Shown piece after piece: positions 1-23,741 of a stretch of DNA of 32,000 nt. Both the position numbers and the translations under genes were made by a program. Position 1 is the first letter of the stretch; every line of letters begins with the position of its first letter. The DNA lies in contig JAQVDW010000003.1 in assembly GCA_028698185.1 (NCBI GenBank), positions 90,001-122,000 of the forward strand, written 5' to 3'. The notes below the pieces were generated by a model. The model saw only the letters and a list, made by a program, of their open reading frames with translations, was not told where the DNA came from and did no database searches. Origin of the DNA: Erysipelotrichaceae bacterium. Lineage in GTDB: Bacteria > Bacillota_I > Bacilli_A > Erysipelotrichales > Coprobacillaceae.

Positions 1-551
1 ATCAGGAAAACCAAGTGGAAATTCCTGCCCATATCGCCGGAGTGATGCTTGGAGCCATCCTGTCGGACACCCTGATTTTCAAATCGCCTACATGTACTGC
101 CAAGGATAAGGAAGTCGCTTTGACATTGGCTAAAATCGCAGGTGTTGATCTGCAAAAGTTCGGAATGGACATGTTCAAGGCCGGGACATCGCTGGTTGGC
201 AAGACGGTCGAAGAGATTTTCAATCAGGATATGAAAAAGTTCACGGTAAACGACAATACTGTTGCGGTTGCCCAGGTCAATACTATGGACATCGAAGGGT
301 TCATGGACTACAAAGGCGACATGCTTGAATATATGAACGATTTTTGTGAACGCAACAATCTGAAATTTGCTTTATTGTTGCTGACAGACGTTATTAACGG
401 CAACAGTGAGATTCTCGCTGCCGGAAGTCGCCAAGATTTCATAGAAGCTGCATTTGAAGCCAAATTGAAAGACCATCAGGCAACTTTGGCCGGAGTTGTA
501 TCACGTAAAAAGCAAGTTGTGCCGCAACTCACAGCGGTGTTGGCTCAATAA
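1..551 (+). CDS. ppaC: Manganese-dependent inorganic pyrophosphatase (family II, DHH/DHHA2), 5'-truncated by window edge
   Basis: Reading frame 3 is open from the window edge (QENQVEIPAHIAG...). SDTLIFKSPTCT, AQVNTMDIE and GVVSRKKQVVP run closely parallel to the C-terminal half of B. subtilis PpaC. Confidence 0.9.
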   Translation, partial: QENQVEIPAHIAGVMLGAILSDTLIFKSPTCTAKDKEVALTLAKIAGVDLQKFGMDMFKAGTSLVGKTVEEIFNQDMKKFTVNDNTVAVAQVNTMDIEGFMDYKGDMLEYMNDFCERNNLKFALLLLTDVINGNSEILAAGSRQDFIEAAFEAKLKDHQATLAGVVSRKKQVVPQLTAVLAQ

Positions 552-4947: not shown

Positions 4948-6075
4948 ATGGGTAAAGAAATTGTAGCAATGATTTTAGCAGGAGGACGGGGAACCAGGCT
5001 TAAAGCATTAACTGCTAGTGTCGCTAAGCCGGCAGTGCATTTTGGGGGGAAGTACAGGATTATCGATTTTCCTCTAAGCAATTGTGCCAATTCAGGAATA
5101 GATGTAGTGGGGGTTTTGACTCAGTATGAGTCAGTTCTTTTGGGGACTTATGTCGGAGCTGGAACAAAATGGGGTCTTGATGGAAAACAATCGACAGCTG
5201 CGGTTCTGCCAGCACGTGAACGTGGTGGTGTCGGTGCGACATGGTATGCCGGGACTGCCGATGCCATATATCAAAATATCGGATTTTTGGATGAACACTC
5301 ACCGGAATATGTTTTGATTCTGTCGGGTGACCATATTTATAAAATGGACTATGACAAGATGCTTGAAGCGCACAAGCAAAAAGGAGCGGATTGCACCATT
5401 GCCGTCTTGAACGTTTCATTAAAAGAGGCAAGCCGCTTTGGTATCATGAATACCAATCCTGATGGAACTGTTTACGAGTTTGATGAAAAGCCGGAAAAAC
5501 CGAAATCTACGCTGGCATCAATGGGGATTTACATTTACACTTATCAGGAATTGCGCAAATATCTGATTGAAGATGCCAAAGATGAAAAATCGGCGCACGA
5601 TTTCGGAATGAACATCATTCCTAACATGTTGGCGGACAACAAGAAACTGTACGCTTATGAGTTCGATGGTTATTGGAAAGATGTAGGGACAGTAGAGTCG
5701 TTATGGGAAGCGAACATGGACCTTCTTGAAGACCGTGAATTGGATCTTTACAATATCAAGAAAGATTGGAAAATTTACACCGAAGATACATTGGCTCAGC
5801 CTCAATACGTTGGTGAAGACGCGCAGATTTCAAATTCAATCATCAATCAAGGATGCATGATTGAAGGAACAGTCACTGGCTCAATTCTTTTCGGTGGAGT
5901 CAGCGTCGGAAAAGGAGCAATTGTTGAGGATTCGGTTCTGATGCCGGGGGTATTGGTTGAAGAAGGAAGCGTCATCCGCAAGGCGATTATCGACGAGGGT
6001 GTTGTTATCACGGAAAACTCAAAAATCAACGAAGATGCCGGTGAAGTGGTACTGGTATCTAACAACGAAGGCTAG
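4948..6075 (+). CDS. glgC: Glucose-1-phosphate adenylyltransferase, catalytic subunit
   Basis: MILAGGRGTRLKALT nucleotidyltransferase motif, FGGKYRIIDF, C-terminal left-handed beta-helix repeats. ATG 4948 with AAGGAGG RBS is preferred over the track's upstream start at 4861. Confidence 0.92.
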   Translation: MGKEIVAMILAGGRGTRLKALTASVAKPAVHFGGKYRIIDFPLSNCANSGIDVVGVLTQYESVLLGTYVGAGTKWGLDGKQSTAAVLPARERGGVGATWYAGTADAIYQNIGFLDEHSPEYVLILSGDHIYKMDYDKMLEAHKQKGADCTIAVLNVSLKEASRFGIMNTNPDGTVYEFDEKPEKPKSTLASMGIYIYTYQELRKYLIEDAKDEKSAHDFGMNIIPNMLADNKKLYAYEFDGYWKDVGTVESLWEANMDLLEDRELDLYNIKKDWKIYTEDTLAQPQYVGEDAQISNSIINQGCMIEGTVTGSILFGGVSVGKGAIVEDSVLMPGVLVEEGSVIRKAIIDEGVVITENSKINEDAGEVVLVSNNEG

Positions 6076-6087
6076 GGGGAAATAATA

Positions 6088-7197
6088 ATGGCAAAAGTAA
6101 TTGGAATTGTAAACTTGCACACAACTACAAGTTTTGATGGATTAACGGAAAGAAGACCAAGCGCGTCAGTCAGCTTTTTGGGCCGCTATGCCCTTATCGA
6201 CTTCGTATTGTCAAACATGTCCAATTCGAACATCGATTCTGTCGGTGTGTTGATCCAGGAAAAACCAAGATCGTTATTCAAACATCTTGGTGGCGGGGAT
6301 TCTTGGAACTTCAACTCGAAAGCGGGGGGGATTTCGTTCCTGTACAATGAAAAATATGCGAACAACAAAAAATACAACCATGACTTGAACAATTTGGAAG
6401 AAAACATCCATATAATCGAGTCGGTCAACGCCAAGTATGTGGTTATCGCGCCTGCCCATATTTTGACTACAATGAACTACGACGACATGATCACTGCCCA
6501 TGAAAAAACCGGGGCGCGAATCACTGTTGCTTATCAGCATATCAACAACGGCGGGGAAACTTTTATCGGTGCCCAGACATTGAAAGTCGAAGATGGAATA
6601 ATCAAGTCGTTTGCGGCGAACAAAGGTGTAAATAACGAGTGCGACGTTTCTTTGGAAACTTATGTAATCAACAAGGACGCTCTTTGTGACATAATCCGTG
6701 ATGCCAAGAAAGCTTCATCTTTCTTCAAGTTGAAAGATGCCCTGGCTTACTACGCTTCTGAAAAGAAGATCAATGCCTACGAATACCGCGGTTATGCAAG
6801 ATATGTGGATTCGCTTGAAAACTACTACAAGGTTTCTCTTGAATTCCTTAATCTTGACATCTCGTCGGCCGTTTTCAAATCAAACTGGCCGATCTACACC
6901 CTTACCAATGACACACCACCGGCCAAATATCTTAAAGATGCTTCGGTCAAGAAATCTTTCATCGCCAATGGGGCTTTGATCAACGGTACCGTTGAAAACA
7001 GCATCATCGGACGTGATGTTGAAATCGGAACCGGGGCTATTGTGAAGAATTCAATCATCTTCACTGGTGCGAAAATCGCCGAAGGTGCGGTGGTTGTCAA
7101 CACGATCATGGATAAAAGATCACAGGTCAAAATTCAAAAAGACCTTATCGGTGATCCGCAGACACCACTTTATGTCAAAGAAGGGGATGTTGTTTAA
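6088..7197 (+). CDS. glgD: Glucose-1-phosphate adenylyltransferase, regulatory GlgD subunit
   Basis: GlgC paralog lacking the GGxGxRL motif (VIGIVNLHTTTSFDGLT...). Sits between glgC and glgA, as is typical of Bacillota. Confidence 0.85.
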   Translation: MAKVIGIVNLHTTTSFDGLTERRPSASVSFLGRYALIDFVLSNMSNSNIDSVGVLIQEKPRSLFKHLGGGDSWNFNSKAGGISFLYNEKYANNKKYNHDLNNLEENIHIIESVNAKYVVIAPAHILTTMNYDDMITAHEKTGARITVAYQHINNGGETFIGAQTLKVEDGIIKSFAANKGVNNECDVSLETYVINKDALCDIIRDAKKASSFFKLKDALAYYASEKKINAYEYRGYARYVDSLENYYKVSLEFLNLDISSAVFKSNWPIYTLTNDTPPAKYLKDASVKKSFIANGALINGTVENSIIGRDVEIGTGAIVKNSIIFTGAKIAEGAVVVNTIMDKRSQVKIQKDLIGDPQTPLYVKEGDVV

Positions 7198-8624
7198 TGC
7201 GTGTCTTATTTGCTGCAAGCGAAGCGGTGCCTTTTATCAAGTCCGGCGGACTTGCCGATGTTATCGGGGCATTGCCTAAAGAACTGACAAAAAAAGGCGT
7301 TGAGGCCCTTGTAGTGCTGCCAAAATACAGCGACATGAAAATGTCGGACGAATTGGAATATGTGACCTCGTACGATATCTACATTGGCTGGCGCAAAGTT
7401 TACTGCGGTATTTTCAAGGCTGAAGTGGATGGGGTTGTCTATTATTTCATCGATAATGAAACTTATTTCCGCCGACCTGGGCTGTATGGATATCATGATG
7501 ACAATGAGCGTTTTGCTTTCTTTGACTTTGCGGTCCTTGAGCTGATCAGCCATTTGAACCTTGATATTGATGTTTTGCATCTCCATGACTGGCAGACTGC
7601 GATGATTGCCATGGTCTACAAAGAAAGATACAGCTATTTCCCGGGATATGAAAACATCAAGATTGTCTTTACAATCCACAATATCGCATTCCAAGGAAAA
7701 TGTGACCCTAAACTGTTGACTGACCTTTTCAGTCTGGACAGTTACCTGTACTACAATGGCAATGCCCGTCATGATGATTGTTTGAACATGATGAAGGCAG
7801 CGATTGTCTATAGTGACATCATTACCACAGTGTCGCCAACATATGCCAAGGAAATACTGACTCCCGAATACGGAGAAGGATTGCACACCGTTTTGGAACT
7901 GCGCCGCTATGATCTTTACGGGATACTGAACGGAATCGATTATGATATCAACAACCCGGAAACCGATGGCAGCCTGGTTGCCAATTTCAATTCGGATAAC
8001 TTCCGTGTTGAAAAAGTCAAAAACAAACTGGCCTTGCAAAAAGAGGTCGGTCTTGAACAAGACAGCAGGGTTCCCCTGATCGGAGTCGTTACCCGGCTGA
8101 CCCGGCAAAAAGGTCTGGATCTGATTCTCAACAAGCTCGAATTGCTGATGGAAGAGGAAGTCCAGGTCGTTATCCTGGGGGCAGGTGATCAAGTTTACGA
8201 ACAGGCTCTAAAAGATGTCGCTTGGAAGTACGATGGCAAATTGTCGGTTCAGTTGAAATATGATTTCGGTCTTTCTTGCCGCATTTACGGCGGTACCGAT
8301 ATGTTCTTGATGCCTTCGCTGTTCGAGCCTTGTGGTCTTTCACAGATGATGGCGTTGCGGTATGGTTCGGTTCCGATTGTCCGGGAAACCGGCGGTCTTA
8401 AAGATTCTGTTCCTGCCTTTGACGATGAAAATCAGACTGGTTTAGGATTCTCGTTCGTGAATTTCAACGCCGAAGAAATGTTTGACACAATTCTTTATGC
8501 TTTGCATGTGTATTACAACAACCGTGAGTCTTGGGATGACCTGGTAAAACGCGGCATGAATGCCAAGTTGGACTGGGAGCATTCGGCACAAGAATACTTA
8601 AAAATTTACAAATCCTTGCTTTAA
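7197..8624 (+). CDS. glgA: Glycogen (starch) synthase, ADP-glucose type (GT5)
   Basis: N-terminal MRVLFAASEAVPFIKSGGLADV (KxGGL motif), HDWQTA, and FLMPSLFEPCGLSQM. TAATG overlap with glgD. Confidence 0.93.
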   Translation: MRVLFAASEAVPFIKSGGLADVIGALPKELTKKGVEALVVLPKYSDMKMSDELEYVTSYDIYIGWRKVYCGIFKAEVDGVVYYFIDNETYFRRPGLYGYHDDNERFAFFDFAVLELISHLNLDIDVLHLHDWQTAMIAMVYKERYSYFPGYENIKIVFTIHNIAFQGKCDPKLLTDLFSLDSYLYYNGNARHDDCLNMMKAAIVYSDIITTVSPTYAKEILTPEYGEGLHTVLELRRYDLYGILNGIDYDINNPETDGSLVANFNSDNFRVEKVKNKLALQKEVGLEQDSRVPLIGVVTRLTRQKGLDLILNKLELLMEEEVQVVILGAGDQVYEQALKDVAWKYDGKLSVQLKYDFGLSCRIYGGTDMFLMPSLFEPCGLSQMMALRYGSVPIVRETGGLKDSVPAFDDENQTGLGFSFVNFNAEEMFDTILYALHVYYNNRESWDDLVKRGMNAKLDWEHSAQEYLKIYKSLL

Positions 8625-19029: not shown

Positions 19030-19038
19030 TAACGACTG

Positions 19039-19062
19039 ACCCGGGAGATTCCCGGGTTTTTG
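19039..19062 (+). terminator. Intrinsic terminator after adhE
   Basis: ACCCGGGA/TCCCGGGT hairpin followed by a T-run. Confidence 0.85.
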
Positions 19063-19253
19063 CTTTGGTTATGTTAAAGTGAGGTAAATGCATACCTCAA
19101 TCATTTTCGGTGGGATCTCGATTAGGGAATAATTTTATGGAATTGTAGTAAATAATGGTAAATGGGCTGATTGGACCATTTGCCACAATTCAGTCATATT
19201 TTCCAAGTATGATATGATTGCAAATAAGAAAATTCAACTTCAGGAGGTTTGCT

Positions 19254-20120
19254 ATGAAAATAGTAATAAAAATGTTGGTCGATGTGACAATGATGGCCTT
19301 GTTCTTGCTTTTGATGTTTGGCTACAAGCTTTCACCGCTTTTTCACGAGATTGCCGGAATAGCCATCGGTGTCGTTTTCATGGTTCATATTCTATTGAAT
19401 CTGAAGGCAACCCAGGGAATATTGGGGTCATTGGCTTCTGGCCGTCTTAAGGGGGCGACCAAGGTCAATGCGATTTTGGATGTGATGCTGTTGGTCATGA
19501 TGCCTTTGGATATCATCAGTGGTCTGTTGGATTCCAAGTTCATCCTTTACAGCCCCTATAACTCCCTCATCTCAACCGTGCACCACGTATTTTCCTGGAT
19601 TGTCTTCGCGATCATCGCGGGGCATCTGTACCTGCATCTCAATTACTTGAAGGCGACCATAAAGTCCAAGTTCATGCGCGGGAAACAGTCCAAAGGGAAT
19701 GCCCTTGCTCTGATGGGGTTGTTGACGGTGGTCGGCGGGCTGTTCTTGAATTCATTCCTGCTGGTCCTCAACATCAACAACGATTCAGACATGGAATCGA
19801 ATGTCAGTGACTTGGATGATGATGACTCCGCATCTTCAACCGAAGATGACCAGATCGCTGACTCTTCATCAGGAGCTACGGATGACGACCAGTCGACTAC
19901 AGACGGTGGTGGAACAACTGACAAGACCATAACTCTAAGCGAGTATCTCAAGGGTTTAAACTGTGATGGCTGTGGCCGTCGTTGTTCTCTTGCGAACCCG
20001 AGATGTGGAATCGGTGAAAACCAGGCTGAACAGGCAACTTTGGATTATGAAAGACTCTATGGCCAAATTGACTCAAGCAATACCAGCCTTGTGGCTGCAA
20101 CAATAAGCTCGAGGGAATAA
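19254..20120 (+). CDS. DUF4405-like 5-TM His-rich membrane protein with an acidic D/S/T tail and a CxxCx3Cx6C motif
   Basis: Five hydrophobic helices carrying conserved-looking His residues (HEIAG, VHILLN, VHHVF, GHLYLH). Tail is NNDSDMESNVSDLDDDDSASSTEDDQIADSSSGATDDDQSTTDGGGTTD, followed by CDGCGRRCSLANPRC. ATG 19254 with CAGGAGG RBS is preferred over the track start at 19218. Confidence 0.6.
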   Translation: MKIVIKMLVDVTMMALFLLLMFGYKLSPLFHEIAGIAIGVVFMVHILLNLKATQGILGSLASGRLKGATKVNAILDVMLLVMMPLDIISGLLDSKFILYSPYNSLISTVHHVFSWIVFAIIAGHLYLHLNYLKATIKSKFMRGKQSKGNALALMGLLTVVGGLFLNSFLLVLNINNDSDMESNVSDLDDDDSASSTEDDQIADSSSGATDDDQSTTDGGGTTDKTITLSEYLKGLNCDGCGRRCSLANPRCGIGENQAEQATLDYERLYGQIDSSNTSLVAATISSRE

Positions 20121-20145
20121 AATTCACTAGTTTTTATCTGAATAA

Positions 20146-20154
20146 TGTTATAAT
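20146..20154 (+). promoter_or_regulatory. Candidate extended -10 promoter for the two-component operon
   Basis: TGtTATAAT exactly. No convincing -35. No terminator between the DUF4405 gene and this site. Confidence 0.45.
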
Positions 20155-20169
20155 CTAATTAACCTAAGA

Positions 20170-20196
20170 CTTTAAGTAAGTTTTAGGTTTTAATGG
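20170..20196 (+). promoter_or_regulatory. Shared 27-nt element, copy A (direct repeats TTTAAGT / TTTAGGT, 11-bp period)
   Basis: CTTTAAGTAAGTTTTAGGTTTTAATGG is 21/27 identical, ungapped, to copy B at 22150-22176. Ends 23 nt before the regulator ATG. Confidence 0.5.
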
Positions 20197-20219
20197 TATT
20201 ACTTAATTGGGGTGAAAAT

Positions 20220-20897
20220 ATGAGAATTTTACTGGCTGAAGATGAACGCGATATCGCAAATGTTTTGCAGGTAGTATTAAAACGCAATCACTATGAGGTT
20301 GATTGGGTCGGCAATGGAGTCGCTTTTGTAGACTATGTCGAAACAGGGAATTATGATCTGGCGGTCCTGGATATAATGATGCCCAAGATGGATGGCTTAA
20401 GCGCATTGAAGATAATCCGGGAAAGGGGATATGCGATTCCGGTAATCCTGTTGACGGCAAAAAGCGAGATCGATGACAAGGTAAATGGGTTAGATTCGGG
20501 CAGTGACGATTATCTGACCAAACCCTTTGCGACAAAAGAACTGTTGGCGCGGATCCGAATGCTTCTGCGGCGGAATAAAACTACGGTCGATAATGAACTT
20601 GCTTATGGGAATATTGCATTGTCCCGGGTTACCTATGTGCTTAAAGGTCCAAAACAAGAGTTCAAGCTGGCTTCAAAAGAGTTCCAATTGATCGAACTGC
20701 TCCTACAGCAGCCTGGCGCTGTCATTTCCACTGAGACGTTCATGGATAAAATATGGGGATATCAGAGCGAAAGTGAACTCAACGTGGTGTGGACCCATAT
20801 CTCCTATATCCGAAAGAAGCTCAAGGAAATAGGCTCCAACGTGACAATAAAGGCATCGCGGGGCGCGGGGTACTATTTGGAGGTAAACGATGATTAA
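20220..20897 (+). CDS. OmpR/PhoB-family response regulator
   Basis: Receiver domain (LLAEDE, LAVLDIMMPKMDG phospho-Asp, LTAKS, KPF) plus a winged-helix output domain (LSRVTYVL..., GAGYYLE). ATG 20220 (MRILLAEDE). Confidence 0.92.
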   Translation: MRILLAEDERDIANVLQVVLKRNHYEVDWVGNGVAFVDYVETGNYDLAVLDIMMPKMDGLSALKIIRERGYAIPVILLTAKSEIDDKVNGLDSGSDDYLTKPFATKELLARIRMLLRRNKTTVDNELAYGNIALSRVTYVLKGPKQEFKLASKEFQLIELLLQQPGAVISTETFMDKIWGYQSESELNVVWTHISYIRKKLKEIGSNVTIKASRGAGYYLEVNDD

Positions 20898-22122
20898 GAA
20901 ACTGCAACGGCGCTTTATTGTTATTGCTTTGGTCAGCGTTTCGGTGGTTTTTGTGACCATAATGGGCACGTTGCTTGTAAGCAACTACCTGAATATTGTC
21001 GAAAAGGCCAGCAACTCGATCGATCTTATCTATGTCTCGGCCGATCAGCTTGAAGCGGGACTATCCTACCGTGATTCAGGAAAAAAGCCGCCAACCGACG
21101 GATTGGATGTAAACTATGATTTCAGGGGACCAGAAGGTATTTTTTCATCACGCTTCTTCATTGTGAAACTCACTGACGGGACTGTCAGCGAAGTCAATGT
21201 CGACAACATCAGTGCTATCGATCAGACAAGCGCCGGCGAAATGGCTTTGGAGGTAATCGCCAATGAGGATGGGGTTTATGAGAATTATCGCTACAAGGTG
21301 TTTGACGAAGGGTCGAGCCAAACGGTAGTTTTCATCGACACTTATATGGAAATGCAGTCGTTCTATGAATTTTTGTCAAACACCGCAATCATGGGCGGTT
21401 TTGGTTTGGGAATGTTTATTCTTGTCGCCTGGTTCCTGTCAAAGATGGCAATAAGACCGCTGGTGGAATCGATTGAAAAACAGAAGCAATTCATCACCAA
21501 TGCTTCCCACGAATTGAAGACGCCATTGACTGTCATTTCCGCCAACAATGAAATGATCGAGCTCGATTATGGTCCGAATAACTGGTCCCAGGGGATCGAA
21601 AGGCAGGTTGGAAAAATGAACAAGCTGACGAATTCGCTGGTCACCTTGGCCCGTCTTGACGAACAGGATTATCATGTCGAGCTCAAGGAAATCGATTTGA
21701 GCGGCCTTGTCAAGGAAGTGGTTGATGATTACCGCGACCTGGCTCTTGTTGAAAATAAGGTCTTTGAGTGTGAGTTGGAACCGTTATCCCTCAAGGGCAA
21801 CGAGGAACTGCTCCGCCAGCTGGTTTCCATATTGCTCGACAACGCATTCAAGTATTCAAACAACAAAGGTTGGATCAAGATCCGCCTTAAAGTCGGAAAG
21901 AAGAAAACTCTTATTGTCGAGAACAGTGTGGAAGAAATAATTTCCGGAAGTCATGACGAAGTGTTCGAGCGCTTCACCAGGCTGGAACAGTCCAGGAACT
22001 CGAGTCTGGGTGGCTATGGAGTAGGGTTGGCCATTGCCAAATCAATTGTGGGCAGACACCATGGCAAAATCAAGGCTTATAGCGAAGACAACAACACTTT
22101 TACAATCAGGATTGATTTTTGA
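20890..22122 (+). CDS. Sensor histidine kinase (2 TM, extracytoplasmic domain of about 135 aa, HisKA + HATPase_c)
   Basis: TM helices at about residues 10-31 and 165-187. H-box FITNASHELKTPLT, N-box LLDNAFKY, and G-boxes GGYGVGLAI. 8-nt overlap with the regulator gene. Confidence 0.9.
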   Translation: MIKKLQRRFIVIALVSVSVVFVTIMGTLLVSNYLNIVEKASNSIDLIYVSADQLEAGLSYRDSGKKPPTDGLDVNYDFRGPEGIFSSRFFIVKLTDGTVSEVNVDNISAIDQTSAGEMALEVIANEDGVYENYRYKVFDEGSSQTVVFIDTYMEMQSFYEFLSNTAIMGGFGLGMFILVAWFLSKMAIRPLVESIEKQKQFITNASHELKTPLTVISANNEMIELDYGPNNWSQGIERQVGKMNKLTNSLVTLARLDEQDYHVELKEIDLSGLVKEVVDDYRDLALVENKVFECELEPLSLKGNEELLRQLVSILLDNAFKYSNNKGWIKIRLKVGKKKTLIVENSVEEIISGSHDEVFERFTRLEQSRNSSLGGYGVGLAIAKSIVGRHHGKIKAYSEDNNTFTIRIDF

Positions 22123-22124
22123 TC

Positions 22125-22146
22125 ACGGCTTCGGCCGTTTTTTTTC
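22125..22146 (+). terminator. Small intrinsic terminator after the kinase gene
   Basis: ACGGC-TTCG-GCCGT (UUCG tetraloop) followed by T8. The short stem may be leaky. Confidence 0.6.
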
Positions 22147-22149
22147 TTC

Positions 22150-22176
22150 CTTAAAGTACGTTTAAAGTTTTATTGC
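22150..22176 (+). promoter_or_regulatory. Shared 27-nt element, copy B (TTAAAGT x2, 11-bp period)
   Basis: CTTAAAGTACGTTTAAAGTTTTATTGC. Has a perfect 7-mer direct repeat at 22151-22157 and 22162-22168. Ends 28 nt before the VTC-gene ATG. Confidence 0.5.
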
Positions 22177-22204
22177 TAAGGTGATATTGTAAGGAGTGAA
22201 GAAT

Positions 22205-22951
22205 ATGGCAAATGACAGATTTGAACGCTTGGAATTCAAGTATCTGATTACCAGGCAGCAACAAAAAAAATTACTGGAAGTATTTCCGGGCGAGATCAAA
22301 ATTGACAGTTACGGGCGCACCGATATTTTCAACCTGTATCTCGATACCGATGATTTTCGGCTGATTCGCAATTCGATTGAAAAACCGGTCTATAAGGAAA
22401 AATTGAGGGTCAGATCATACGGCAAGGCGGCAGGCAGGGATCAAGTGTTTATCGAGTTGAAAAAGAAATACAAAGGTGTTGTCTACAAGCGGCGGATAGC
22501 TACAACCCAGGATGAGGCGCTCGATTCGCTGTTGGCAAGAAAGATCGACTGTTCCAGTCAAATTGGCCAGGAAATAGAATATTTCACCAAGTACTACCGT
22601 TCATTAAAACCCAGGATGTTCATCGGCTACGAGCGGGTGGCCTACTTTGATCCAAACAATCCTGATTTCAGGGTTACATTCGACGAAAACATCAGGTACC
22701 GGCTGAATAACCTGACATTGGACTGCAAGAACGAAGGGGCTTTGCTGATCGACAGCGACCACGTCTTGATGGAAATAAAGATTATGGGATCTTTTCCTCT
22801 ATGGCTGGCACAGGCACTGTCCATGTTGGAAATATCCAAATCAAGCTTTTCCAAGTATGGCAATGCATACAAGGAATGTCTTGAAAAGGGCCAGATTGAA
22901 ATCAAGACAAACATCAATTATAACGGACAAGGAGTAGTATCATATGCTTAA
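22205..22951 (+). CDS. VTC-domain protein (polyphosphate-polymerase-like triphosphate tunnel, CYTH/TTM superfamily)
   Basis: FERLEFKYLI first strand, KLRVRSYG, FIELKKKYKGVVYKRR, VLMEIK and SFSKYGNAY, matching my memory of the VTC family profile. AAGGAG RBS 8 nt before ATG 22205. Confidence 0.7.
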   Translation: MANDRFERLEFKYLITRQQQKKLLEVFPGEIKIDSYGRTDIFNLYLDTDDFRLIRNSIEKPVYKEKLRVRSYGKAAGRDQVFIELKKKYKGVVYKRRIATTQDEALDSLLARKIDCSSQIGQEIEYFTKYYRSLKPRMFIGYERVAYFDPNNPDFRVTFDENIRYRLNNLTLDCKNEGALLIDSDHVLMEIKIMGSFPLWLAQALSMLEISKSSFSKYGNAYKECLEKGQIEIKTNINYNGQGVVSYA

Positions 22952-23636
22952 TTCTATTATCGAACAACTTGCAACCACAACCACAAGTCAAATAACACTT
23001 ACATCGTTTTTTACCTGCATGGTTGCAGCGATGGTCATCGGGTTGGTAATCGCCAAAATGTACGAGTACAAAAACAGCTATAACAAGGGTTTTGTGATCA
23101 CCCTGGCAATGCTGCCCTCAATTGTGACGCTGGTAATCATGATGGTCAATGGAAATATCGGAACTGGGGTGGCAGTCGCGGGTGCATTTTCGCTTGTCCG
23201 CTTCCGTTCGCAGCCGGGAAGTGCCCGGGAAATAAACGCGATATTCTTTACGATGGCCACCGGACTGGCCACCGGAATGGGTTATCTGCTTATTGCCGTT
23301 GTTTTCACCGCAATCATGGCGATATTCAATCTGGTGCTTGTAACCAGCGCCTTTGGTGAAGGCGGCGGGACAATCGCGACAAAGGAAATAAGGATCACAA
23401 TTCCGGAAAATCTAGATTATGAAAATGTGTTCAGTGATATTTTTGAAAGGGCGACAAAAAAGTATCGCCTGGTCGAGGTTAAGACAACCAATATGGGGAG
23501 TCTTTTCAAGCTTCGCTATGAAGTCGAATATAAGGAAGGCATATCCGAGAAAGAGCTGATTGACCAGCTGCGCTGTCGCAATGGAAATCTCGAGATATCG
23601 AGCTCGTATGCGGCAGTGGCCATGACCGAGTTGTAA
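22944..23636 (+). CDS. DUF4956-like membrane protein (4 TM plus a C-terminal soluble domain)
   Basis: AVAGAFSLVRFRSQPGSAREINAIFFTMATGLATGMGY core between hydrophobic helices. About 90-aa alpha/beta-looking tail. 8-nt overlap with the VTC gene. The VTC + DUF4956 gene pairing is recurrent in bacteria, as far as I recall. Confidence 0.65.
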   Translation: MLNSIIEQLATTTTSQITLTSFFTCMVAAMVIGLVIAKMYEYKNSYNKGFVITLAMLPSIVTLVIMMVNGNIGTGVAVAGAFSLVRFRSQPGSAREINAIFFTMATGLATGMGYLLIAVVFTAIMAIFNLVLVTSAFGEGGGTIATKEIRITIPENLDYENVFSDIFERATKKYRLVEVKTTNMGSLFKLRYEVEYKEGISEKELIDQLRCRNGNLEISSSYAAVAMTEL

Positions 23637-23659
23637 ACGGCAATTATTGCCGTTTTTTT
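23636..23659 (+). terminator. Intrinsic terminator after the DUF4956 gene
   Basis: AACGGCAA-TTA-TTGCCGTT followed by a T-run to 23659. Confidence 0.8.
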
Positions 23660-23741
23660 GATGATGTTTTTCAACATGGCACTTCAATTTTTTCCAGGAA
23701 TATGGTTTAATTAATTTAGGTGAATTTGAGGGTGATGCAAT

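Follow-up and report, generated by a model that had tools for sequence, protein, structure and literature searches.

A VTC-DUF4956 gene pair behind a CiaR-type operator: a candidate polyphosphate system of Erysipelotrichales and Clostridia

We analyzed a 32,000-nucleotide stretch of DNA from a gut bacterium of the Erysipelotrichaceae/Coprobacillaceae (assembly GCA_028698185.1, contig JAQVDW010000003.1, positions 90,001 to 122,000 of the forward strand), referred to here as the window, and find that a block of five same-strand genes in it is best explained as two functionally linked transcription units and one unrelated neighbor. The first unit encodes a two-component system, and the second encodes a soluble protein with a VTC domain together with a membrane protein of the DUF4956 family. 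The regulatory link from the two-component system to VTC-DUF4956 is well supported, being predicted from an operator that the two promoters share, and the best-supported reading of the VTC protein, from homology and gene context, is that of a predicted Vtc4-like polyphosphate polymerase. At present, PPK1 and PPK2 are credited with making the polyphosphate of bacteria. A preliminary description of this DNA had suggested that the five genes form a compact module that makes or moves polyphosphate, or else cleaves triphosphates, under a private sensor system; what it observed is confirmed, and its interpretation is partly supported.

Results

Two transcription units

The genes and signals of the two units are, in order of position, as follows.
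20170-20191, + strand: regulator box 1, CTTTAAGTAAGTTTTAGGTTTT, a tandem 11-bp repeat at the −35 position, with the −10 hexamer TATTAC at 20197-20202
20220-20897, + strand: response regulator gene, with its true start at the ATG at 20220 behind a conserved ribosome-binding site
20890-22122, + strand: histidine kinase gene
22125-22146, + strand: intrinsic terminator just 3' of the kinase stop codon, a hairpin (ACGGCTTCGGCCGT) followed by T8
22150-22171, + strand: regulator box 2, CTTAAAGTACGTTTAAAGTTTT, followed by 5 nt and the −10 hexamer TAAGGT at 22177-22182 (promoter feature 22150-22182)
22205-22951, + strand: VTC gene
22944-23636, + strand: DUF4956 gene

Within each unit the genes overlap by 8 nt, with ATGATTAA at the junction of regulator and kinase and ATGCTTAA at that of VTC and DUF4956, both as first described, and the translational coupling of DUF4956 to VTC through this overlap is confirmed. 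Between the units stands the terminator at 22125-22146, and VTC-DUF4956 is therefore a transcription unit of its own. The hairpin is kept in the close relatives L001 and L002, and a different hairpin occupies the same place in L003. The idea of one compact five-gene module does not survive this result, as the internal terminator splits the kinase gene from VTC and the first gene of the block is not co-conserved with the others.

Conservation across species

The VTC family has more than 7,500 matches and is common in gut Clostridia and Erysipelotrichales. Our survey took one genome per species and comprised 79 further loci, mostly from Lachnospiraceae, Oscillospiraceae, Ruminococcaceae, and other Clostridia. 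The VTC and DUF4956 genes are adjacent and on the same strand in 76 of the 79 species, which bears out across genomes the pairing seen in the window, and an overlap of exactly 8 nt is the modal arrangement, found in 39 of the 76 adjacent pairs. A gene of the Cthe_2159 beta-helix family, coding for 360 to 810 amino acids, is present at 65 of the 79 loci and directly follows DUF4956 at approximately 56 of them; a typical lipoprotein signal was seen in all four of the encoded proteins that were read. The adjacency of a two-component system could be evaluated at the 67 loci with enough flanking sequence, and a kinase of the cognate type adjoins VTC-DUF4956 at 38 or more of these, in nonsyntenic contexts. 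In the 38 loci, the kinase gene lies upstream on the same strand (13 loci), divergently (22 loci), or downstream (3 loci). Conservation of a two-component system with the pair, a check named in the preliminary description, holds for these 38 of 67 loci and fails for about 29.

From this linkage we conclude that the conserved system consists of the two-component system, VTC, DUF4956, and the Cthe_2159 lipoprotein, and that the window, which has no Cthe_2159 gene, holds a reduced version of it. The window lineage has lost the usual third gene of the operon. Three close relatives (L001 to L003; VTC identity of 59 to 75%) keep all five genes of the block, together with the entire neighborhood from adhE to pyrG, and their agreement is therefore plain synteny and no proof of a module.

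Several side observations concern the composition of these loci. In an abundant gut lineage (L006, positions 4998-7807, and L007; P0098, with 144 member sequences on 58 contigs), the regulator and kinase genes accompany a VTC gene with the box, with neither DUF4956 nor Cthe_2159; a flavodoxin-like gene follows VTC, and the VTC protein has a C-terminal extension. This lineage is an exception to an obligatory VTC-DUF4956 pairing. In 7 of the 79 species, the VTC-DUF4956-Cthe_2159 cluster contains or adjoins a gene for a small alarmone synthetase of the RelA_SpoT type (L014, 8423-9040; L082, 8422-9051; L043, 10560-11105; and four more loci), which hints at a link between the module and (p)ppGpp. 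Two metagenome-assembled genomes (MAGs), one assigned to the archaeon Methanomethylophilus (L074) and one to Bacteroides (L075), carry Firmicute-like VTC loci with proteins approximately 47 to 50% identical to the VTC protein of the window, and these are probably due to misbinning or recent transfer.

The operator

In most of the surveyed loci, a tandem repeat with an 11-bp period lies upstream of VTC. It has the consensus TTTTAAGTTCATTTAAGGTTCG, and a −10 hexamer comes 5 nt after it; the core architecture can be written as TTTAAG-N5-TTTAAG, N10, −10 hexamer. This matches the published site of streptococcal CiaR, NTTAAG-N5-TTTAAG, with 10 nt to the −10 hexamer (PMC3091779; PMC8317062). We built a weight matrix from other species only, with neither the window nor its close relatives in the training set. 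With a threshold of 15 bits, the matrix gave 59 matches in the 270 nt upstream of VTC in these species, 11 upstream of linked regulator genes, and 10 elsewhere in 1.03 Mb with both strands scanned, so that the operator is approximately 100-fold concentrated upstream of VTC. In the window, exactly two matches reach 10 bits, one upstream of the regulator gene and one upstream of VTC. Box 1 scores 12.3 bits and box 2 scores 15.9 bits; by simulation, 0.5 and 0.06 matches with such scores, respectively, are expected anywhere in a window of this size. The two boxes have identical spacing to their −10 hexamers, and both are kept in L001 to L003. We predict that box 1 is the autoregulation site of the two-component genes and that box 2 is the regulator-dependent promoter of VTC-DUF4956. 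That the two units share an upstream DNA element had been noticed in the window alone, and it now rests on a box found in dozens of species and on a matrix that picks just the two predicted promoters.

The privacy of the sensor system fares less well. In a few other genomes, copies of the box stand in front of genes for HtrA-like serine proteases, a PcsB-like peptidoglycan hydrolase of the M23 type, and Beta_helix proteins (L011, 2592-3696; L017, 3673-4812; L018, 10288-11571; L048, 10064-12147; L054, 2845-4829) and in front of a gene for an ABC ATPase. The sensor is therefore probably not strictly private to VTC, and with HtrA- and PcsB-like genes behind the box, the regulon resembles an envelope stress regulon.

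One subgroup (L043, L045, L069, L080, and L081) has no TTTAAG box, and its regulators are only 44 to 45% identical to that of the window. Approximately 20 to 110 nt upstream of the VTC start (locus positions ~6880-6990; 2410-2515 in L045), it carries CTTCAAT-type repeats together with an inverted repeat, CCTGTAC...GTACAGG, which is conserved and overlaps the ribosome-binding site of VTC. These repeats could be a different operator combined with translational or attenuation control.

The two-component system

The regulator belongs to the OmpR/PhoB family, with the Pfam domains Response_reg (E value of 1.2e-31) and Trans_reg_C (2.6e-21). The kinase has the domains HisKA and HATPase_c, two transmembrane (TM) helices, and an extracytoplasmic domain of approximately 130 amino acids, and no HAMP domain was detected in it; an OmpR-type regulator with a two-helix sensor kinase is what had been read from the sequence at the outset. 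The best NCBIfam matches of the two proteins are RppA and RppB, below the equivalog cutoffs. Regulators encoded beside VTC genes in other species are 44 to 59% identical to the window regulator; for unrelated OmpR-type regulators of those loci, the identity is 31 to 40%. The VTC-linked kinases of other species align with the window kinase over their full length, sensor domain included, and unrelated kinases align with it only over residues 180 to 408.

One further signal lies in front of the regulator gene.
20146-20154, + strand: extended −10-like element, TGTTATAAT, read from the sequence, approximately 16 nt upstream of the regulator box
Most of this element is kept in four relatives. Besides the box-dependent promoter, the two-component genes may thus have a basal one, and the bound regulator would then sit just downstream of the basal start site.

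The VTC protein

The VTC protein of 248 amino acids matches the Pfam VTC model at 136.2 bits (cutoff of 23; E value of 1.7e-39) over profile positions 2 to 232 of 235, so that its early description as a tunnel-domain protein holds. VTC is the only domain found in it by Pfam, with no SPX domain and no TM segment. Across 15 homologues, R8, E10, K12, R68, R70, E84, K86 to K88, and K95 to R97 are invariant, as are R144, R156, D160, E190, K192, S216, and K217 and the motif SFSKYG. In a profile alignment to the sequences of the Vtc4 crystal structures, K12 corresponds to the lysine of TTKYW, R68 and R70 to HRLRW, K86 to ERK, K95 to SVKAR, R144 to YNR, and R156 to RVRISLD. We take these positions (K12, R68/R70, K86, K95, R144, and R156) to be K200, R264/R266, K281, K294, R361, and R373 of Vtc4. 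The bacterial residue aligned to R196 of Vtc4 is also invariant. E190 (E426 in Vtc4) and K217 (K458) are assigned by motif only, as HMMER left the C-terminal third unaligned, and SFSKY maps by motif to the region of K458, the catalytic lysine of Vtc4 (PMC4641920).

Tunnel enzymes of the hydrolase type have an acidic patch of four glutamates that forms a second metal site, and in Vtc4 this patch is replaced by basic residues (PMC4641920). Three of the patch positions can be mapped in the VTC protein; two of them are basic as in Vtc4 (R8 and K192), and one is acidic (E10). The fold was modeled with AlphaFold2 on the VTC part of P0241, a homologue with 43% identity to the window protein. The top Foldseek matches of this model are 9umg, 8i6v, and 7ytj (Vtc3/Vtc4) and 3g3r and 3g3q (Vtc4), with E values of approximately 1e-10, and structures like the CYTH cyclases follow at approximately 1e-5. 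By both predicted fold and sequence, the VTC protein is a close relative of the polymerase branch.

The DUF4956 protein

The DUF4956 protein matches its Pfam model at 56.9 bits (cutoff of 30.6; E value of 2.9e-15) and was rightly described as a DUF4956-like membrane protein coupled to VTC by the overlap of 8 nt. Its homologues number in the thousands and are 53 to 85% identical to the window protein, or 53 to 60% across families, with an invariant segment GNxGxGVAVAGAFSLVRFRSxPG. An AlphaFold2 model (pLDDT of 72) has five helices followed by a C-terminal beta-alpha-beta-beta-alpha-beta domain. In Foldseek searches of the PDB, this domain has weak matches to ferredoxin/ACT/PII-like folds, and nothing among the solved structures matched the membrane part. 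The distribution of positive charges (positive-inside rule) suggests an N-out/C-in topology, which would put both the RFRS loop and the ACT-like domain on the cytoplasmic side, where contact with the enzyme would be possible.

A kinship with MgtC/YhiD was considered and set aside. A DUF4956 homologue is named YhiD in one source, and a weak Pfam MgtC match spans the whole membrane part; this match is not significant (E value of 0.43), nor is the hhalign comparison with E. coli YhiD (probability of 0.3%; E value of 0.19).

The neighboring gene and the surroundings

The remaining features of the block are the first gene and the two boundaries.
19038-19066, + strand: terminator after adhE, upstream boundary of the block, a 9-bp GC-rich hairpin (19038-19058) followed by a T-run
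19254-20120, + strand: gene 1, with an ATG start after AGGAGG
23635-23663, + strand: terminator, downstream boundary of the block, a 9-bp hairpin (23635-23655) followed by a T-run

The protein of gene 1 combines a five-helix membrane domain like that of DUF4405/cytochrome b with an acidic linker rich in Asp and Ser and, at the C terminus, a CxxCxxxCx6C motif. In Pfam, it has no DUF4405 match itself, and its score against Ni_hydr_CYTB (cytochrome b561) is below threshold (22 bits, with a cutoff of 30.1; E value of 1.4e-4). Among its homologues (P0359 to P0508), 6 of 10 are above the DUF4405 threshold, and H31, H45, H110, and H124 are invariant in the family, as are C237, C240, C244, and C251. 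The DUF4405 label therefore holds at the level of the family, so that the earlier naming of a DUF4405-like protein with a Cys motif stands for the family and the motif and not for a DUF4405 match of the window protein. The four histidines in TM helices fit a predicted di-heme domain of the cytochrome b-like (DUF4405) type. The linker is variable and predicted to be extracellular, and the invariant Cys motif has no Pfam model. This family is widespread (951 representative clusters).

We rejected gene 1 as a member of the module. Among the surveyed loci, its homologues stand beside VTC only in the syntenic relatives, the weight matrix scan found no regulator box upstream of it, and one homologue elsewhere (L089, 5001-5858) adjoins a gene for an ArsR-type regulator. 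Gene 1 is probably a lineage-specific neighbor outside the conserved module. CiaX, a Ser/Asp-rich calcium-binding peptide encoded upstream of ciaRH in S. mutans, offers a loose analogy to gene 1 only.

The remainder of the window consists of housekeeping genes (those for glycogen synthesis, cysS, nusG, adhE, pyrG, ispF, gltX, and asnB). All five open reading frames (ORFs) are present on one strand where the preliminary description had placed them, and it was likewise right that this is the sole nonhousekeeping block and that terminators flank it. No known RNA elements were found in the window with Rfam. A role in antiphage defense was considered for the block and rejected, as PADLOC gave no match to defense families. 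The first ORF of the window (15-551), which is truncated, has a DHHA2 domain, as is usual in family II inorganic pyrophosphatases and DHH phosphoesterases. Although ordinary, it is the sole other phosphate-anhydride enzyme within the window.

Discussion

The explanation that we favor, tentatively and at slightly less than an even chance, is that of an autoregulated two-component system that controls a polymerase working on a membrane partner, with passage of the product to the cell surface. The kinase, with its two TM helices and its conserved extracytoplasmic sensor, would phosphorylate the OmpR-family regulator. The phosphorylated regulator would bind the tandem TTWARG repeat (11-bp period) at its own promoter, so that the first unit would be autoregulated, and at the VTC promoter, and the bound repeat, whose distance to the −10 hexamer is exactly 10 nt, would take the place of a −35 element. 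The soluble VTC protein would act as a Vtc4-type polymerase that takes the gamma-phosphate of ATP, and it would work at the membrane on DUF4956, whose cytoplasmic RFRS loop and ACT-like domain would serve to tether the enzyme or to regulate it. An oligomer of DUF4956 would probably pass the growing chain to the cell surface, where, in most relatives, the beta-helix lipoprotein of the Cthe_2159 family would handle the product. We infer the synthesis and export of polyphosphate by VTC-DUF4956 from homology and gene context.

Several results weigh against this explanation. On the side of the gene neighborhood, no Cthe_2159 gene lies within the 32 kb of the window, about 29 of the 67 evaluable loci have no adjacent two-component system, and some species have VTC and the two-component system without DUF4956. 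On the side of the proteins, the C-terminal third of the VTC enzyme was not aligned to Vtc4 by HMMER, E10 is invariant and occupies the position of Glu-4 of the hydrolase patch, a glutamate that Vtc4 lacks, and DUF4956 has no similarity to the TM channel of Vtc1/3/4 in Pfam, PDB-sequence, or Foldseek comparisons. Natural fusions of VTC and DUF4956 help little. A concatenated query found dozens of them in metagenomic data (P0241 to P0264), but they are rare and many have garbled stretches that look like frameshifts. Some of these stretches lie in or near the 8-nt overlap, where an indel of 1 nt would create a fusion. Most of the apparent fusions are probably assembly or pseudogene artifacts, and a fusion also conflicts with the N-out/C-in topology suggested by the charge distribution. 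We therefore give them little weight as evidence of a physical complex. The structure prediction of the VTC-DUF4956 complex that had been suggested for this pair was run on the natural fusion P0241; its domains fold (pLDDT of 79.6), but with a pTM of 0.50 no docking geometry can be read from the model. Lastly, our full-text literature searches turned up no biochemical or genetic work on a bacterial VTC or DUF4956 protein.

Both hydrolase chemistry and a purely cytoplasmic product are live alternatives. In the first, which we consider rather unlikely, the VTC protein would be a hydrolase or cyclase of the tunnel fold (a tripolyphosphatase, polyphosphatase, or NTPase) or would make a signaling nucleotide, and DUF4956 would be a metabolite-sensing membrane regulator or would handle ions or phosphate. 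Most characterized tunnel enzymes are indeed hydrolases or cyclases, and activity is not predictable from the fold alone (PMC4641920). The invariant E10 at the Glu-4 position is what makes hydrolase or other triphosphate chemistry a live alternative, and the CYTH cyclase-like structures are also significant fold matches. The ferredoxin/ACT/PII-like C-terminal domain of DUF4956 would suit a sensing role, and the (p)ppGpp synthetase gene in 7 of the 79 clusters hints at signaling by nucleotide polyphosphates. However, sequence and fold are both closest to Vtc4/Vtc2/Vtc3 and not to the hydrolase/cyclase branch, two of the three mappable positions of the acidic patch are basic as in Vtc4, and K217, matched by motif to the catalytic K458, is invariant. 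Nor would a cytosolic hydrolase have an obvious need for a coupled membrane partner and a surface lipoprotein.

The second alternative accepts the polymerase but not the export. Polyphosphate would be made but would stay cytoplasmic or on the inner side of the membrane, and DUF4956 would serve only as an anchor or for allosteric control. A preprint on S. intermedius argues for cytoplasmic polyphosphate since the other subunits of the VTC complex are missing; DUF4956 is unlike the yeast channel, five short helices per monomer offer little room for a polyanion pore, and the window lineage works without the extracellular lipoprotein. Even so, we think this alternative improbable, as the Cthe_2159-family gene is present at 65 of the 79 loci with a lipoprotein signal in the four examples read, the pair is associated elsewhere with secreted CotH kinases and exopolysaccharide loci, and in some genomes the operator is common to genes for HtrA- and PcsB-like extracytoplasmic proteins.

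That the five genes are mere neighbors, with other targets for the two-component system and a coincidental synteny with VTC, would fit the close relatives that share the whole adhE-to-pyrG region and the 29 of 67 loci with no adjacent two-component system, and it does appear to hold for gene 1, but for the rest it is highly improbable given the same regulator/kinase family beside VTC in unrelated contexts and both orientations, the roughly 100-fold concentration of the operator upstream of VTC, and its presence at both window promoters with identical spacing.

The VTC-DUF4956 pair itself has been seen before. Genes in the order CotH-VTC-DUF4956(-DUF4832), with VTC annotated as "PPP" or "poly-phosphate polymerase," have been noted beside Gram-positive pel loci, and pairs of VTC with a "tubulin-like" gene, which are the same VTC and DUF4956 pair, have been noted in NELoc-2 of C. 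perfringens. The S. intermedius preprint also records the pair and speculates on cytoplasmic polyphosphate. Our full-text literature searches found no functional study of a bacterial VTC-DUF4956 pair, so that the statement that such pairs are known by domain name only was correct as to function but missed these records. A role outside the cytoplasm is suggested by these records of the pair next to secreted CotH kinases and Pel exopolysaccharide loci. No CotH gene was seen in the window; the survey did not include a screen of the other loci for it. Three results appear to be new, namely the canonical third gene, the operator of the CiaR type, and the finding that gene 1 lies outside the module.

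By itself, the window holds an ordinary and reduced member, without the lipoprotein, of an uncharacterized family. If the family makes polyphosphate, it would represent a second bacterial route to this polymer and the first prokaryotic counterpart of the eukaryotic principle of a polymerase joined to a translocase. A 2026 preprint describes extracellular polyphosphate in B. cereus that does not depend on PPK, with no enzyme named; B. cereus is said to lack a VTC4 homologue, and the module therefore cannot be the enzyme there. A more far-reaching picture, which as a whole we regard as rather unlikely, is that in gut Firmicutes a Vtc4-like polymerase docked on DUF4956 extrudes polyphosphate to the cell surface by a PPK-independent route, that the Cthe_2159 lipoprotein holds or processes it there, and that a CiaR-like envelope stress switch turns the system on alongside genes of the HtrA/PcsB type. 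In this picture, exported polyphosphate would be an ATP-independent extracytoplasmic chaperone or a cation buffer, and the system would give a molecular basis for extracellular polyphosphate that is independent of PPK in bacteria. The three-gene core (VTC, DUF4956, and the Cthe_2159-family lipoprotein), the cognate sensor system, and the exact operator sequence make these ideas testable now.

Comparison with known systems

PPK1 and PPK2 share with this system only the proposed product, polyphosphate made from a nucleoside triphosphate. Their folds and mechanisms are unrelated to it, and they are soluble or peripheral proteins with no dedicated, coupled membrane partner. MgtC/YhiD proteins have five TM helices and a C-terminal ACT-like domain as DUF4956 does, which is a resemblance only, as the match between them is not significant. 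The pairs at pel loci and in NELoc-2 have the same VTC and DUF4956 genes but are found with a secreted CotH kinase and exopolysaccharide genes, whereas in the 79 surveyed species the pair travels with the CiaR-like two-component system and the Cthe_2159-family lipoprotein.

The likeness to CiaRH lies in the operator, with its half-site, its period of 11 bp, and its 10 nt to the −10 hexamer, as well as in the predicted autoregulation, the htrA-type targets, and a kinase that has two TM helices and a sensor domain outside the cytoplasm. The proteins differ, with a recognition helix of VVWTHISYIRKKL in the window regulator and VVEVYVSKVRKKL in published CiaR (7 of 13 residues identical). As a whole, the window regulator is 37% identical to an unverified CiaR sequence, a value at the level of paralogues. 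We rejected the regulator as an orthologue of CiaR at the protein level, and the likeness of the operators stands. To our knowledge, no VTC or DUF4956 target of CiaR has been reported.

The closest known system is the yeast VTC complex. The catalytic tunnel domain is homologous, with Vtc3/Vtc4 as the best structural matches, the basic tunnel residues and catalytic lysines are conserved as far as they can be aligned or mapped by motif, and in both systems the enzyme has an obligatory membrane partner. In contrast to yeast, the enzyme here stands alone as a soluble protein of approximately 245 amino acids that has neither an SPX domain nor a TM region and that keeps E10, which is missing in Vtc4. 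DUF4956, with five predicted helices and an ACT-like domain, has no detectable similarity to the three-helix VTC/DUF202 channel subunits, and control in the bacterium would be transcriptional, through the two-component system, and not by inositol pyrophosphate acting on SPX. We thus rate the system as a predicted Vtc4-type polymerase with a nonhomologous partner and transcriptional control.

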